A stretch of 4,026 nt of DNA from a virus (IMGVR_UViG_2698536418_000015), one strand, 5' to 3'; shown: positions 1 to 4,026, counted from the stretch's first letter. The notes: generated from the sequence alone by a model not told the origin. Made by a program: numbers and translations.

Positions 1-89
1 CCATCTTTCTGGACAGACACCACCCGTTTACCGGTTAATAAATCAAGGCGCGCCTGACGCAGCGCCTGCAGTTCAGCGACTGTAACCAT
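1..89 (-). CDS. W: Head-tail joining protein gpW-like, N-terminal part only; the gene continues past the window start
   Basis: Minus-strand ATG at 87..89 follows GGAGGAG (revcomp of about 93..99). Translation MVTVAELQALRQARLDLLTGKRVVSVQKDG matches the remembered start of lambda gpW (…LMTGKRVATVQKDG…). Sits immediately downstream of the terminase large subunit, as in lambda (Nu1-A-W), and overlaps its 3' end by 17 nt. Confidence 0.85.
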   Translation of the reverse strand, partial: MVTVAELQALRQARLDLLTGKRVVSVQKD

Positions 90-1943
90 TCACTCCTCCG
101 GACAGCTTCGCTGCCAGTTCTTTCAGGGTTGGCCGGGTCGTCTCTTCTTCCCGGGATTTTGCCAGTACAGCCAGATCAAGCTGCCAGCGTTGCACGGACA
201 CACGTAATGCCGCGTAGGCATACACCAGGCAGTCCAGCGCTTCGTTACGCCGCTTTTTGTTATCCCACAGCAGACGCATCTTTCCTTTTTCCCACTTCTC
301 CACCAGCTCTTCCGCCACCAGTTGCTGCGCCTCTGTCTGCGAAAAAATCTCCGGATCATCAGGAAAACGGATGGCATACGACGTGGCTTCATCCGCAGGC
401 GTGGGATCGGCTTTCATACGGGCATAGAGAATTTCTTTTGCGGTATCCGTTCCCACTTCACACAGATACACGCCCCGCTGATTGCGGGTTTTTGGCATGG
501 TGATCACCGGCTTGCCATAGACAGATGCGCCTTTTACCGGCAGCACCCGGAAAACACCGTGTTTTTTTGATCTCTGATAAACAATTTCACCATCGATCCC
601 CCCGGTGTCCCAGCAGACACGGGAAATAGTCATTTCGGTGCCATCCGCATGGCGGTATTTTTTGTTGATCGCCGCATCCACACGTAACAGCGTCTCTTCC
701 TCATCAGGACGCCCCATAATGATGATTTTATCCACCAGAAAGGCTTCCTCTCCCGGAGCCCATCCCCAGACATACATCTCAAAACGGTTTCGCTGCGAGT
801 CAATGCCCGCCGTCAGATAAACCACCCGGGCAGGCACCGCCGCCGTGTAACGCACCACCTTATCCATCAGTACCTGGTGATCGAGTTTTTCGCCCACGGC
901 CTCTTCCCAGGTCTCGCCCAGCGTGGTGTTCACAAAGGTTTTCAGGCCGTTGGGATCTTTCAGTGCATCCAGCCAGTCATAGACAATCTGTACCCAGGTG
1001 GTGAACGGACTGTACGCCGTCCAGATATGGAACGTGATGGAGCGCGGCGGCGGAATTTCATCACCCCGGGCGCTGAAAAACGTCAGACCGTCACGGGTCC
1101 ACATGCCCGTGTTTTCACAGATCCACCGCCCGTTGCTCTGGTCAAGCTCAGACTGATGGATCACGCAGCCATGATGTTCACAGAGGTAGAAAACACTTTC
1201 AGGGCTGTCCTTCTCCCATTTAAGCCCAAAAGGCGTGGACTCATCGCCAAATTTCAGATACTGCTCCTCCCCACAGTGCGGGCAGGGCACATAAAAACGC
1301 ATAAAATGCGCCGACTCGTTAGCGGCTTTTTCGATCTGGCAGGTGCCTTTGATTTTAGGCGTCGAGCCGCGAATGGATTTTGGCCACACCGACCCCTCAA
1401 TACGCTTATCCCCCAGCAGGGTTGGCGAGCCCTCTTTTTCGACATCCGGCTCGAACGAGGAAAGTTCGTCATAGCAGACCACGTCCACGGATTTTTCACG
1501 GTAGTTTTTGGCGGCAGCGCCGCCCNNNNNNNNCCCAGCCATGGGGAAAGGTCTTTCAGGCATGGCACGTTCCGAATCGTCGCCTCCACGTGAGACTTCA
1601 TAAAATCTTCAGCGGCAGAATCCGTGGGCTGAAAAAGCAGACTGTTTCGGGATTTATGCTCAATAAAATACCCGACCACCCCCAGCAACATCTTTGTATA
1701 GCCAACACGGGCAGATTTAATCAGGTTAACCGTGCGAACCTGGTCGTTACCCATACAGTTCATAATGGCGATCTGGAATGGCAGCGTTTTCCATTCTCCC
1801 TCACCATATGAAGATTCTTTAGGCAGATAATAATTTTGATCAGCCCATTCAACTGCCGTCATTGGTACAACCCTGACCAGAGGCTGCAGCGCAACCGAAA
1901 CGGCAGCCATCATATTATTCAGTTGTTGCTCTGATATATTCAT
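73..1943 (-). CDS. A: Terminase large subunit (lambda gpA family); reading frame interrupted by an 8-N gap at 1526..1533
   Basis: The N-terminal part (ORF 1254..2000, true ATG at 1941..1943 giving MNISEQQ…TAVEWADQNYYLPKESSYGEGEWKTLPFQ…SARVGYTKMLLGV…FIEHK) and the C-terminal part (ORF 73..1563: GGAAAKNYREKSVDV…FLGDKRIEGSVWPKSIRGSTPK…CPHCGEEQYLKFG…FHIWTAYSPFTTWVQIV…FVNTTLGETWE…YLTAGIDSQ…WGWAPGEE…RVCWDTGGID…SKKHG…KGASVYGKP…WDNKKRRNEALDC…) are colinear with lambda gpA as remembered. The two parts are in different frames only because of the N run. Stop TGA at 73..75. Confidence 0.95.
1526..1533. other. Run of 8 ambiguous bases (assembly or masking gap) inside the terminase large subunit gene
   Basis: Literal nnnnnnnn in the sequence. 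Flanking codons give …LKDLSPWL on one side and GGAAAKNY… on the other. Remembered lambda gpA has about 20-25 residues between these two motifs, so the gap probably stands for roughly 60-70 nt of unresolved sequence. Confidence 0.9.
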
Positions 1944-2424
1944 CGAGTAAATCCGGTAATTTATCCCCTGCCCGCGCACACTGATTTGCCCCCTTCGCAA
2001 TAAGGGTTTTCAGATGGTCAAGATGGCGCGGTGTTAAATCAGGAAACTGTCGCTGCATGGATAAAGGGATGGAATCAAGCGTACTGGATAACGCCATTGC
2101 CAGCTTACTGAGGGCAAAAATACAGAACCCGGTGTCAATAAGTTTTCCTTTTGACACCTCATTTTTTAACTGCTGTGTAACAGCCTGTTCTGCTGTCAGT
2201 TCCCATCTGGCAATAAGCAATTTCTCCTCATAGTCGTCTTCGCTATCGCCATCAGGCACATCGTTTTTACTTCTCCTCAGATACGATATGTAAAAATCGC
2301 GCCAGGCATCCAGATCCAGTTGCCCTCGCTTATTCGATATCGGGGCACCCGGCAATTTCTGCAATCTGCGAAGCTGGCGATCGGTCAGACTTAAATGCCT
2401 GGCAACTTCAGTCTGCGTAGCCAC
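1915..2424 (-). CDS. nu1: Terminase small subunit (Nu1-like), with a divergent N-terminal winged-HTH DNA-binding domain and a lambda-like C-terminal gpA-interaction region
   Basis: C-terminal half (TGFCIFALSKLAMALSSTLDSIPLSMQRQFPDLTPRHLDHLK…LPDLLDEYI) matches lambda Nu1 as remembered (TAFCTFVLSRIAGEIASILDGLPLSVQRRFPELENRHVDFLK…IPGLLSEYI). N-terminal roughly 60 aa (ATQTEVARHLSLTDRQLRRLQKLPGAPISNKRGQLDLDAWRDFYISYL) is HTH-like but unlike lambda. First codon is GTG (2422..2424) directly after an in-frame stop, with GAGGTGAGGA upstream. Start lies 196 nt from cosN (lambda 191) and the gene overlaps the gpA start by 29 nt, as in lambda. Confidence 0.9.
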   Translation of the reverse strand: MATQTEVARHLSLTDRQLRRLQKLPGAPISNKRGQLDLDAWRDFYISYLRRSKNDVPDGDSEDDYEEKLLIARWELTAEQAVTQQLKNEVSKGKLIDTGFCIFALSKLAMALSSTLDSIPLSMQRQFPDLTPRHLDHLKTLIAKGANQCARAGDKLPDLLDEYIRATTE

Positions 2425-2470
2425 TCCTCACCTCGCAAAAACTCTCACCTCACAATCACAACAAAACCGG

Positions 2471-2482
2471 TCATGTCCGGTT
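2471..2482 (+). repeat. cosB R-like element, copy nearest Nu1 (R1 position): TCATGTCCGGTT
   Basis: Exact 12-nt direct repeat of 2501..2512. Embedded in AACCGGtcatgtCCGGTT, which has local dyad symmetry. Lies about 138-149 nt from cosN, comparable to lambda R1. Confidence 0.6.
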
Positions 2483-2500
2483 TACATGTCTGTTTTTTGT

Positions 2501-2512
2501 TCATGTCCGGTT
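2501..2512 (+). repeat. cosB R-like element (R2 position): TCATGTCCGGTT
   Basis: Exact 12-nt direct repeat of 2471..2482, about 108-119 nt from cosN. Separated from the third copy by an AT-rich spacer. Confidence 0.6.
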
Positions 2513-2558
2513 CACAGAAGACCTGTTTTTATATTTTTCATATAGTTAACTTGAAGAG

Positions 2559-2570
2559 AAACCGGACATG
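2559..2570 (-). repeat. cosB R-like element (R3 position), inverted copy: plus strand AAACCGGACATG, revcomp CATGTCCGGTTT
   Basis: Reverse complement matches the 11-nt core of the other two copies. About 50-61 nt from cosN, comparable to lambda R3, and inverted relative to the R2-position copy across an AT-rich spacer, as with lambda R3/I1/R2. Confidence 0.6.
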
Positions 2571-2607
2571 GATCCCGGAAAATTTTCATAAATAGCGAAA
2601 ACCCGCG

Positions 2608-2619
2608 AGGTCGCCGCCC
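2608..2619 (-). other. cosN cohesive-end sequence; the minus strand reads GGGCGGCGACCT, the lambda 12-nt 5' overhang
   Basis: Plus strand 2608..2619 is aggtcgccgccc, the reverse complement of GGGCGGCGACCT. It is preceded in phage orientation by …CCGTTACG (plus 2620..2627), matching the lambda right terminus as remembered. Expected staggered nicks are between 2619/2620 on the minus strand and 2607/2608 on the plus strand. Confidence 0.9.
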
Positions 2620-2631
2620 CGTAACGGCCCG

Positions 2632-2650
2632 GATCGCCGGAAAGGACCCA
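2632..2650 (-). other. cosQ-like element (needed for cos cleavage at the end of packaging in lambda)
   Basis: Revcomp of about 2636..2650 is TGGGTCCTTTCCGGC, matching the GGGTCCTTTCCGG segment that sits at the same distance from cosN in the lambda right end, as remembered. Exact boundaries are uncertain. Confidence 0.5.
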
Positions 2651-2654
2651 CGAA

Positions 2655-2671
2655 ATGATAATGATTATCAT
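2655..2671. repeat. Perfect 8-bp inverted repeat with a 1-nt centre: ATGATAAT g ATTATCAT
   Basis: Read directly from the sequence. The same palindrome is present at the lambda right end as remembered. Function unknown; a possible protein-binding site. Confidence 0.7.
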
Positions 2672-2825
2672 CTATATAAGGTTTATCACAACATGTGTGT
2701 ACGCCATCAAACCACGAGAAATAATCAATTATGACGCAGGTATCGTATTGATTGATCTGCGTCAAATTAACGTAAAAGCAACTTCAGATAATACAAATCA
2801 GCAACACTGAATATGGGGAAACATT

Positions 2826-3059
2826 ATGTCATCAAAGAACAGAACCCGCAGAACAACAACCCGCAACATCCGATTTCCAAACCAGATGATTGAACAAATT
2901 AACATCGCTCTTGTTCAAAAAGGGTCCGGGAATTTCTCAGCCTGGGTCATTGAAGCCTGCCGCCGGAGACTGTGCTCAGTACAAAGAGTTTCGCCTGAAG
3001 CAAACAAAGAAAAGAGTGACATTACTGAATTGCTCAGAAAACAGGTCAGACCAGATTGA
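2826..3059 (+). CDS. Small ribbon-helix-helix-like DNA-binding protein (77 aa), homolog of the conserved lambda right-end ORF; possibly YlcI/DUF3950-like
   Basis: ATG at 2826 with GGGGA about 8 nt upstream. The N-terminal 50 aa (MSSKNRTRRTTTRNIRFPNQMIEQINIALVQKGSGNFSAWVIEACRRRL) are nearly identical to the remembered lambda right-end ORF (MSTKNRTRRTTTRNIRFPNQMIEQINIALEQKGSGNFSAWVIEACRRRL…). The pattern basic tail, RNIRFP strand and two helices is RHH-like. The C-terminal roughly 27 aa are unrelated to lambda. The YlcI/DUF3950 family assignment is from memory. Confidence 0.8.
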   Translation: MSSKNRTRRTTTRNIRFPNQMIEQINIALVQKGSGNFSAWVIEACRRRLCSVQRVSPEANKEKSDITELLRKQVRPD

Positions 3060-3116
3060 AGCAATTTAGATAATCGTGCAGACTACGCCCCCTCATATCA
3101 CATGGAAGGTACTACA

Positions 3117-3527
3117 ATGGCTCAGGTTGCCATTTTTAAACAAATATTCGATAAAGTGCGAAATAATTTAAACTATCACTGGTTTTATTCTGAACTAAAA
3201 CGTCACAATGTCTCACATTACATTTACTATTTAGCCACAGAGAATATTCATCTTGTTCTTGAAAACGATAATACGGTTTTAATAAAAGGACAGGGTAAGG
3301 TTGTAAATGTAAGATTTTCAAAAAATAAATGCCTTATAGAAGCCACCTTAAAAGGATTCAAATCAGGAGAGTTATCATTTTACGAATACAGGAAAAATCT
3401 TGCTACAGCAGGGGTTTTCAGATGGATTACAAATATCCACGAAAACAAAAGGTATTACTATACCTTTGATAATTCATTACTCTTTACTGAGAACATTCAG
3501 AACACTACACAAATATTTCCGCACTAA
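3117..3527 (+). CDS. AT-rich moron gene encoding a hypothetical 136-aa soluble protein; possibly DUF1398 (YbcV/YdfO-like), family assignment unverified
   Basis: The ORF is open from 3102, but the ATG at 3117 has a GGAAGG Shine-Dalgarno 7 nt upstream (3104..3109) and is the likelier start. About 30% GC (counted on 3121..3240) against about 58% in the terminase region. No obvious hydrophobic segment. Motifs HWFYSEL and RYYYTFDN. Inserted between the lysis cassette and cos, where lambdoid phages carry morons. Confidence 0.75.
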
Positions 3528-3535
3528 ATCATAAC

Positions 3536-3564
3536 GTCCGGTTTCTTCCGTGCCAGAACCGGAC
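3536..3564. other. Hairpin: 8-bp perfect stem GTCCGGTT (3536..3543) / AACCGGAC (3557..3564) with a 13-nt loop, 9 nt after the moron stop codon
   Basis: Arms are exact reverse complements. No U-rich tract follows on the plus strand; on the minus strand it is followed by GUUAUGAUUUA. Could be an RNA stability or termination element in either direction, but it is not a canonical intrinsic terminator. Confidence 0.35.
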
Positions 3565-3834
3565 TCGCTGGCATGATGAAATATGTGTACCCGGTAACCC
3601 CGGTGTGCATCGTTTTTGATTATTCCCCCACACTTGTGCAGAAGGAGTTCCCCGTCAGGCTACAGTCATAATTAATGCAAGAGTACAGCGACGATACAGC
3701 GCACAGAAATAAATCAGGTATCCATTGACTTCACAAAGACGGTGCATAGCATCGACTGGAGTAATTGCGTAAATTGAACTCTTGGCACACTTTAGCCACC
3801 GGCGAATCTTCAGCGGATTATCCTTGGCCGGTTT

Positions 3835-4026
3835 TTATCTGAGGCATTGCTCTCGAATGTATAGCTGTGCCCCTTCAAGTTGTTTTTGCATTATTATCAG
3901 TCGCGCTCTGAGGGTGAAATAATCCCGTTCAGCGGTGTCTGCCAGTCGGGGGGAGGCTGCATTATCCACGCCGGAGGCGGTGGTGGCTTCACGCACTGAC
4001 TGACAGACTGCTTTGATGTGCAACCG
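3835..4026 (-). CDS. Rz: Spanin, inner-membrane subunit Rz (i-spanin), C-terminal part; the gene starts beyond the window end
   Basis: Minus-strand translation RLHIKAVCQSVREATTASGVDNAASPRLADTAERDYFTLRARLIIMQKQLEGAQLYIREQCLR matches the lambda Rz C-terminus as remembered (…RRLHIKAVCQSVREATTASGVDNAASPRLADTAERDYFTLRERLITMQKQLEGTQKYINEQCR). The frame runs open to position 4026. Stop at 3835..3837. Confidence 0.9.
   Translation of the reverse strand, partial: RLHIKAVCQSVREATTASGVDNAASPRLADTAERDYFTLRARLIIMQKQLEGAQLYIREQCLR
3897..4026 (-). CDS. Rz1: Spanin, outer-membrane lipoprotein subunit Rz1 (o-spanin), C-terminal part, embedded in the +1 frame of Rz
   Basis: The +1 frame within Rz reads …SQCVKPPPPPAWIMQPPPDWQTPLNGIISPSERD, then stop TGA (revcomp of 3897..3899). 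This matches the proline-rich C-terminus of lambda Rz1 as remembered. The start is outside the window. Confidence 0.85.
   Translation of the reverse strand, partial: GCTSKQSVSQCVKPPPPPAWIMQPPPDWQTPLNGIISPSERD

Follow-up and report, generated by a model that had tools for sequence, protein, structure and literature searches.

A Qin-type ynfO-ydfO accessory region beside cos in a lambda-like prophage: two neighboring genes that are probably not a dedicated pair

Two small genes stand next to one another beside the cohesive-end site (cos) of a lambda-like prophage, and the question that they raise is whether they form a functional unit or simply lie side by side. The genes are found in a stretch of 4,026 nt of the viral sequence IMGVR_UViG_2698536418_000015, the whole of which is referred to here as the window. 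A first-pass annotation described two plus-strand open reading frames (ORFs) that are separated by 57 nt, the first read as a ribbon-helix-helix (RHH) regulator and the second as a moron, with a mosaic breakpoint inside the first. Both ORFs were confirmed, and RefSeq has the same coding sequences (CDS). Their orientation against late transcription was also found to be as described, since the genes for the Nu1-like protein, the large terminase and Rz are all on the minus strand. We conclude that this is probably a Qin-type (ynfO-ydfO) accessory region, in which a cos-linked Arc-like gene is followed by an independent, lysogen-expressed gene of the DUF1398 family, and that the two are not a dedicated pair. 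The gene content of the region and its boundaries are established by the comparisons that follow, and the coordinates are collected in Table 1.

The upstream gene encodes a protein of the YlcI/YnfO family. This protein of 77 residues matched the Pfam model DUF3950 (PF13132) with an E-value of 2.1e-20 and 72.8 bits (cut-off 25), the NCBIfam model NF041551 (YlcI_YnfO_N) with 35.2 bits (cut-off 30), and PHROG 949, and it is 92% identical to proteins named YlcI/YnfO. The family cut-offs are exceeded, and the setting is the one expected, since the gene adjoins cos in a lambdoid prophage and runs opposite to the neighboring small terminase gene. The first 49 residues, denoted here as the N-domain, are nearly invariant. 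Among 89 distinct IMG/VR loci, 23 distinct nucleotide sequences were found to encode 7 protein variants, and the variable sites were distributed 5/3/23 over codon positions 1/2/3, which shows that this stretch is translated and is under purifying selection as a protein.

The downstream gene encodes a protein of 136 residues that belongs to DUF1398, the family of YdfO, YbcV and lambdap78. It matched the full length of the Pfam model PF07166 (profile positions 1-119 of 119) at 3e-43 with 147.1 bits (cut-off 22), and residues 1-135 were aligned with E. coli YdfO (E = 2.9e-67, ~80% identical), the structure of which has been solved by nuclear magnetic resonance (NMR; PDB 2HH8). The same allele, 100% identical, is carried by phages PhiR49_1, Chlobot and ev099. 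The GC content of the gene is 31-32%, compared with 43-53% in the surrounding sequence, and the gene is present in some and absent from others of otherwise homologous loci. On this combination of atypical composition and presence/absence polymorphism it is a candidate moron, and it resembles the morons that lie between cos and the lysis genes of lambdoid phages (bor/iss, cspI, ybcW and others), which are likewise low in GC, antisense to the late genes, variably present and bounded by conserved flanks.

The window was compared with the right end of lambda using blastn; lambda positions are also given below as coordinates of the lambda locus L001. Three segments of homology were obtained. The first ends at position 2971, which corresponds to lambda 48158, as expected from the earlier claim that identity is lost at about 2972. 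An ungapped comparison gave the same answer, with identity dropping sharply after ...CGGAGACT (nt 146-147 of the ynfO ORF). Weak similarity is left over for ~20 nt past 2971 because both tails begin with an xSEKR-like sequence. The junction falls inside the small gene and supplies it with a new C-terminal tail, again as proposed: the window protein is of the 77-residue YnfO type, and its lambda counterpart, encoded by an ORF that is unannotated in NC_001416, is of the 64-residue YlcI type. The two proteins differ at two residues up to RRRL (residue 49) and are unrelated beyond.

Other parts of the first-pass annotation must be revised. The sequence from cosQ to about 2971 had been regarded as near-identical to lambda, but the identity was determined to be 89% with 7 gap positions. 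The junction had been taken as the border of novel cargo; lambda homology returns, however, after 71 nt, at position 3043 (lambda 47527), and it then spans the whole of the DUF1398 gene, a very common E. coli prophage gene. The boundary at 2971/2972 is sharp, as anticipated, but homology is not lost for good. Lambda had also been said to carry the small gene without a partner. In fact lambda has both genes, with lambdap79 on the other strand between them, and lambdap78 is the homologue of the window DUF1398 gene (82% identity in nucleotides and 76% in amino acids).

The 71 nt between the first two segments of homology take the place of 630 nt in lambda (47528-48157) that hold the YlcI-type tail, the opposite-strand gene lambdap79/ybcW and a divergent intergenic region. 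These alignments place the edges of a replaceable segment at 2971/2972 and 3042/3043, and the difference from lambda is the common lambdap79/ybcW swap. On either side of this segment, lambda and DLP12 have the same cos/cosQ/DUF3950 N-domain block and a DUF1398 gene with the same leader, likewise directed against late transcription. The counterpart in DLP12 (ylcI-ybcW-ybcV) resembles lambda in having the 64-residue tail and the additional 630 nt with lambdap79/ybcW on the opposite strand, both of which the window lacks.

The arrangement of the window is a common one. Over positions 2575-3720, the window shares 99.9% identity with a prophage in strain 12A of E. coli O111:H2, where RefSeq annotates identical CDS as "ynfO: YlcI/YnfO family protein" and "DUF1398 domain-containing protein" in a region that runs from the small terminase to the lysis genes. 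Matches to the same interval were found in 4764 of 5426 complete E. coli genomes, 2642 of which cover at least 80% of it, at a median of two places per genome. Three layouts occur in these genomes: ynfO-DUF1398, as in the window and in Qin (ynfO-ydfO beside nohA); ylcI-ybcW-ybcV, as in DLP12 and lambda; and ylcI followed directly by iss/bor, without DUF1398. Qin shares with the window the order and orientation of the Nu1-like gene, cos, the 77-residue ynfO, the 57-nt spacer and the 136-residue DUF1398 gene, together with the YnfO-type tail and a PdhR-box-like site at the ynfO stop codon, and the nucleotide identity is 86-87% over 2575-3565. The two differ downstream, where Qin continues with gnsB-ynfN-cspI whereas the window passes almost directly to Rz, and the window DUF1398 protein differs from YdfO to the extent given above.

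In the 89 IMG/VR loci, no fewer than four classes of tail were found after the N-domain; the classes are unrelated to one another and differ in what lies downstream. Of the 75 loci with a YnfO-type tail (protein of 77 residues), 74 have DUF1398 next, at +56 to +59 nt, whereas the YlcI-type tail (63-64 residues) is followed by ybcW/lambdap79 without DUF1398 or by bor directly. The INEK... tail (74 residues, in one case 97) is followed by a minus-strand ORF of 104 residues (MLHDHLAECLEKKGLYRRAAERW..., locus L162), which may resemble PerC/Pch-type activators. After the STESS... tail (61 residues), nothing recognizable precedes Rz. In locus L159, the slot after the N-domain holds ybcW and ORFs of YnfN-like and cold-shock-protein-like look. 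Every tail class diverges at one and the same nucleotide. Upstream of this point, a multi-locus alignment demonstrated that the sequence between cosN and the end of codon 49 (350-400 bp) is kept as one block regardless of the Nu1/cosB type or the cargo; this block, in which lambda-type homology begins at 2575, is common to lambda and all of the DUF3950 tail classes. The shared point of divergence and the persistence of the block across Nu1/cosB types identify 2971/2972 as a module boundary that recurs among these prophages. It is the edge nearest cos of the well-known slot for accessory genes that extends to the lysis genes.

At the other edge, lambda homology returns at the core of a PdhR-box-like palindrome that is kept in lambda, in Qin-like loci and in PhiR49. 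The sequence AACAGGTCAGACCAGAT is exactly the PdhR-box-like site that was found at K-12 "ynfO > ydfO" by genomic systematic evolution of ligands by exponential enrichment (SELEX; PMC7660256). The counterpart in DLP12 is located in the divergent spacer ybcV<>ybcW, and deletion of pdhR reduces the mRNA of ybcV and of ybcW ~10-fold (PMC7660256). The leader of 74 nt from the PdhR-like site to the ATG is kept in the same three settings, and it contains a -10-like GATAAT at 3069-3074 and a GGAAGG ahead of the ATG. Since this leader is retained with either ynfO or an opposite-strand gene upstream of it, the DUF1398 gene would appear to have its own regulatory region.

Table 1. Features of the 4,026-nt window and its segments of homology with lambda
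Feature	Position	Strand	Remarks
Window	4,026 nt		right/left end junction of a lambda-like prophage
Large terminase gene	73..1563 and beyond	-	
Nu1-like small terminase gene	1915..2424	-	
Conserved cos-proximal block	2575..2971		cohesive end, cosQ, palindrome, DUF3950 N-domain codons
Cohesive-end sequence	2608-2619		AGGTCGCCGCCC
Lambda segment 1	2630-2971		L001 11-345; 89%, 7 gap positions; blastn
Palindrome	2655-2671		ATGATAAT-G-ATTATCAT; perfect 8-1-8, few bases from cosQ
ynfO-type gene	2826..3059	+	77 aa; N-domain aa 1-49 (2826-2972), YnfO-type tail aa 50-77
Replaceable segment	2972..3042		71 nt; YnfO-type tail codons; gap between blastn segments
PdhR-box-like palindrome	3040..3056		AACAGGTCAGACCAGAT; core GGTCAGACC at 3044-3052; ends just before ynfO stop
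Lambda segment 2	3043-3704		L001 976-1636; 82%; blastn
DUF1398 module shared with lambda	3043..3704	+	74-nt leader, gene, 177 nt downstream
DUF1398 gene	3117..3527	+	136 aa; inside longer ORF 3102..3527
Second mosaic junction	3705..3843		139 nt; lysis side, between DUF1398 module and Rz
Lambda segment 3	3844-4026		L001 2082-2264; 90%; blastn
Rz, end of gene	3835..4023	-	

From these comparisons we infer DNA binding by YnfO, a promoter that belongs to the DUF1398 gene, and expression in the lysogen. The N-domain of YnfO may be a small, dimeric Arc/Mnt-like DNA-binding protein of RHH type that travels with the cosN/cosQ block, the tail being whatever sequence happens to follow this block. The DUF1398 gene would be expressed in the lysogen from its own host-regulated promoter and could act as a moron-type factor for stress resistance or fitness. 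The data for the K-12 paralogue point in this direction: ydfO is strongly but transiently induced by ionic liquid, and overexpression of YdfO raises resistance to oxidative stress (PMC4077768). The lambda homologue, lambdap78, was scored as non-essential in a CRISPR interference (CRISPRi) map of lambda (PMC10695390). Homologous recombination in the conserved flanks, with the DUF3950 N-domain and cos on one side and DUF1398 and its leader on the other, would then exchange the two versions of the region.

The proposal that the N-domain adopts an RHH fold is plausible but unproven, and it represents our best guess from prediction and pattern. The sequence begins with a basic arm, KNRTRRTTTR, followed by NIRFP, a helix, KGSGN and a second helix, and is Arc/Mnt-like in look. 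The segment NIRFPNQMIEQINIAL..KGSGNFSAWVIEA stands in register with NLRWPREVLDLVRKVAEENGRSVNSEIYQRV of Arc, and YnfO likewise has a basic N-terminal arm and two predicted helices. A single-chain AlphaFold2 (AF2) model has an extended segment and then helices at 19-32 and 34-54, with a predicted local distance difference test score (pLDDT) of ~84; a third helix, in the YnfO tail, is of low confidence. When the N-domain was compared by hhalign with a hand-assembled alignment of six sequences (Arc, Mnt, CopG, NikR-N, ParD and RelB), the expected register was obtained, but the match is weak (P = 0.023, probability 2%). Pfam at E<=10 returned DUF3950 alone for YnfO and no RHH model, sequence and profile searches of the PDB returned no RHH chain, and Foldseek returned nothing. 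No sequence match of YnfO to an RHH model or to a solved RHH protein was obtained by these searches. The likeness to the Arc, Mnt and CopG repressors and to RHH antitoxins is limited further in that the structural matches are weak and DUF3950 has no conserved partner toxin.

Several observations weigh against the explanation that we favor. Scans of the plus strand for consensus sigma-70 promoters found none ahead of ynfO or of DUF1398, nor was a canonical terminator seen past 3527, so the window DUF1398 gene differs from the lambdoid morons named above in having no clear promoter or terminator of its own. Since these consensus signals were not detected, separate transcription of ynfO and DUF1398 is a point that we infer, and transcription of ynfO could run on across the gap of 57 nt into DUF1398. 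The PdhR-like box is located ~33 nt upstream of the start implied by GATAAT, which is unusual for an activator. The variable sites of the YnfO-type tail (4/1/5 by codon position) provide too little variation to judge selection. The AF2 model of DUF1398 is poor (pLDDT of 45) and adds nothing structural beyond 2HH8. Just past the DUF1398 stop codon, a hairpin, GTCCGGTTTCT...AGAACCGGAC, was noted at 3536-3563; it has no T-run and folds no better than shuffled sequences. An 11-nt match between an arm of this hairpin and an R-site-like repeat at 2557-2567 was discarded as chance-level, since by our own estimate a region of 1.3 kb should contain ~0.2 matches of this length by chance.

The exchange between the two versions of the region has an experimental parallel. 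According to a preprint of 2026, lambdap79 activates the NADase defense system Vulcan, and 7 of 7 lambda-vir escapers had lost lambdap79, probably via recombination with Qin of MG1655 (bioRxiv 10.64898/2026.09.04.749371). The product of such an exchange between lambda and Qin is the arrangement of the window. It could be argued from these laboratory escapers that the polymorphism is driven by defense, that the Qin-type junction is kept because it lacks the Vulcan trigger lambdap79/ybcW, and that the breakpoint is a scar of selection. Both alleles are common in E. coli, and the junctions lie in conserved flanks that are fit for homologous exchange, which speaks for this explanation. The argument comes, however, from one preprint and a heterologous defense system, and ordinary mosaicism in a moron slot already explains the pattern, because tails of four classes or more, accompanied by other cargo, diverge at the same junction. 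We consider a defense-driven origin to be unlikely, but it is the most serious of the alternatives.

A second alternative gives the central role to cos. The N-domain would be a cos-linked DNA-binding protein that acts on the palindrome at 2655-2671 or on transcription through cos, with the tail and DUF1398 as passengers. The N-domain and the 205 nt that separate it from cos form one conserved block regardless of the Nu1/cosB type or the cargo. Lambda and all of the DUF3950 tail classes have kept the perfect 8-1-8 palindrome, which is a candidate protein-binding site. YlcI/YnfO is also listed beside TerS/TerL in capsid-forming phage-inducible chromosomal islands (PICIs) of Enterobacter (PMC13612085). 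Conservation of the block, on the other hand, may reflect mere linkage to cos. In the CRISPRi study of lambda, the sole gene scored as essential here was lambdap79, which the earlier literature regards as non-essential, and the unannotated ylcI ORF was outside the assay (PMC10695390). This alternative seems improbable to us. In a more specific form, which we regard as speculative and improbable as well, an Arc-like N-domain would bind the palindrome beside cosQ and modulate the termination of packaging or antisense transcription across cos, and the YnfO-type tail would have been added later and may contact DUF1398. If this were true, a cos-binding role would explain why all lambdoid lineages have the N-domain joined to cos, regardless of the genes that come after it.

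The suggestion made at first, that the layout is that of a toxin-antitoxin or regulator-effector pair, fared less well. According to this model the two genes would be a co-transcribed, bicistronic unit in which YnfO is an RHH antitoxin or repressor and its tail binds and neutralizes the DUF1398 protein. That the YnfO-type tail and DUF1398 are tightly linked is accounted for by their adjacency within one exchanged module, and the genes are not conserved as neighbors. DUF3950 was found in 151 phage records compared with 43 for DUF1398, and most of the deposited phages with DUF3950 do not have DUF1398. Five kinds of DUF3950 locus without an adjacent DUF1398 gene were identified, and what follows DUF3950 can be bor/iss, ybcW, the 104-residue ORF or nothing recognizable. 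In lambda and DLP12, DUF1398 is retained, but the small gene has a YlcI-type tail and a gene on the other strand separates the two.

The same conclusion is reached from the side of DUF1398. The family is small: clustering at 50% identity gave 189 clusters from a set of 1.84 billion proteins. Many of these clusters are fragments, and no multidomain members were found. Distant members were reached by a search of representative sequences followed by contig look-ups. These are ycgX, which follows bluF-bluR in K-12 and on one metagenomic contig, and three others that lie beside unrelated metabolic or regulatory genes. Neither DUF3950 nor a small RHH-like gene was found upstream of ycgX or of the four distant DUF1398 genes, so that DUF1398 stands alone in all of these chromosomal contexts. 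Pfam, NCBIfam and PADLOC yielded no toxin or defense family for DUF1398, the single PADLOC match (to Csx23) being at chance level, and no defense model of PADLOC matched the 77- or the 136-residue protein at E<0.01. A toxin is also difficult to reconcile with the reported beneficial effect of YdfO overexpression (PMC4077768) and with the production of YdfO for the structure 2HH8. We therefore regard a dedicated pair of this kind as very improbable. Finally, a YnfO-DUF1398 fusion protein that is made by programmed read-through of a single TGA (3057-3059) can be dismissed, for although the two genes share one frame, with 19 open codons between them both in Qin-like loci and in the window, and database clusters labeled as DUF3950+DUF1398 fusions exist (P0014, with 233 residues and 761 members, and P0010), the locus of P0014 has TGA at that codon, so that the fusion is a gene call that reads TGA as Trp, the frame upstream of the DUF1398 start differs in lambda, and read-through as a conserved feature is refuted by spacers of 56-59 nt across loci, some with an in-frame TAG.

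Some annotations of DUF1398 should be read with care. In lambda, the homologue (L001 928-1461) is annotated as a protein of 177 residues from an upstream GTG, and the conserved protein starts at an ATG 41 codons later. The names "head protein" (PHROG 413 and RefSeq lambda) and "putative envelope protein" were rejected as carried-over names, which nothing in the present analysis backs. DUF1398 and YlcI matches were also obtained in assemblies labeled as Pseudomonas, Shewanella, Flavobacterium, Cohnella, Kitasatospora and others. These matches have the 76% identity that is typical of lambda, and the contigs that carry them either measure ~3.5 kb or are ~48.5 kb long with the match at an end. They were not accepted as true occurrences and are read as leftover phage lambda control DNA, which made up most of what a contig scan for distant DUF1398 loci yielded.

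The remainder of the window is that of a mosaic lambdoid prophage. The sequence at 2643-2649 (GGGTCCT) is what we take to be cosQ, presumably lambda 48473-48479. The Nu1-like protein matched the Pfam model Phage_Nu1 over its C-terminal part only, and lambda homology ends at 2575. The cosB/Nu1 specificity looks unlike that of lambda and appears, from the alignment, to have been joined to a lambda-like cosN/cosQ. Three CATGTCCGGTT repeats were noted between the start codon of the Nu1-like gene and cosN, two of them direct (2472-2483 and 2502-2512) and one inverted (2560-2570). A run of eight N at 1526-1533 within the large terminase ORF marks a masked or unresolved stretch and gives XXX in the translated protein. 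On the lysis side, the 139 nt of the second mosaic junction take the place of 445 nt in lambda that contain bor (L001 1751-2044); this gene lies in lambda between DUF1398 and Rz, and it is absent from the window. A search of 2400-4026 with Rfam returned no RNA family.

Both genes and their layout were already known, and the finding is real but ordinary. YnfO and DUF1398 rank with the most frequent prophage genes in E. coli. We have now been able to fix both junctions of the swap (2971/2972 and 3042/3043 in the window; 48158 and 47527 in lambda), and the preprint cited above ties this swap to escape from Vulcan. The DUF3950 N-domain serves as a landmark for the limit, on the cos side, of an accessory-gene hot spot.

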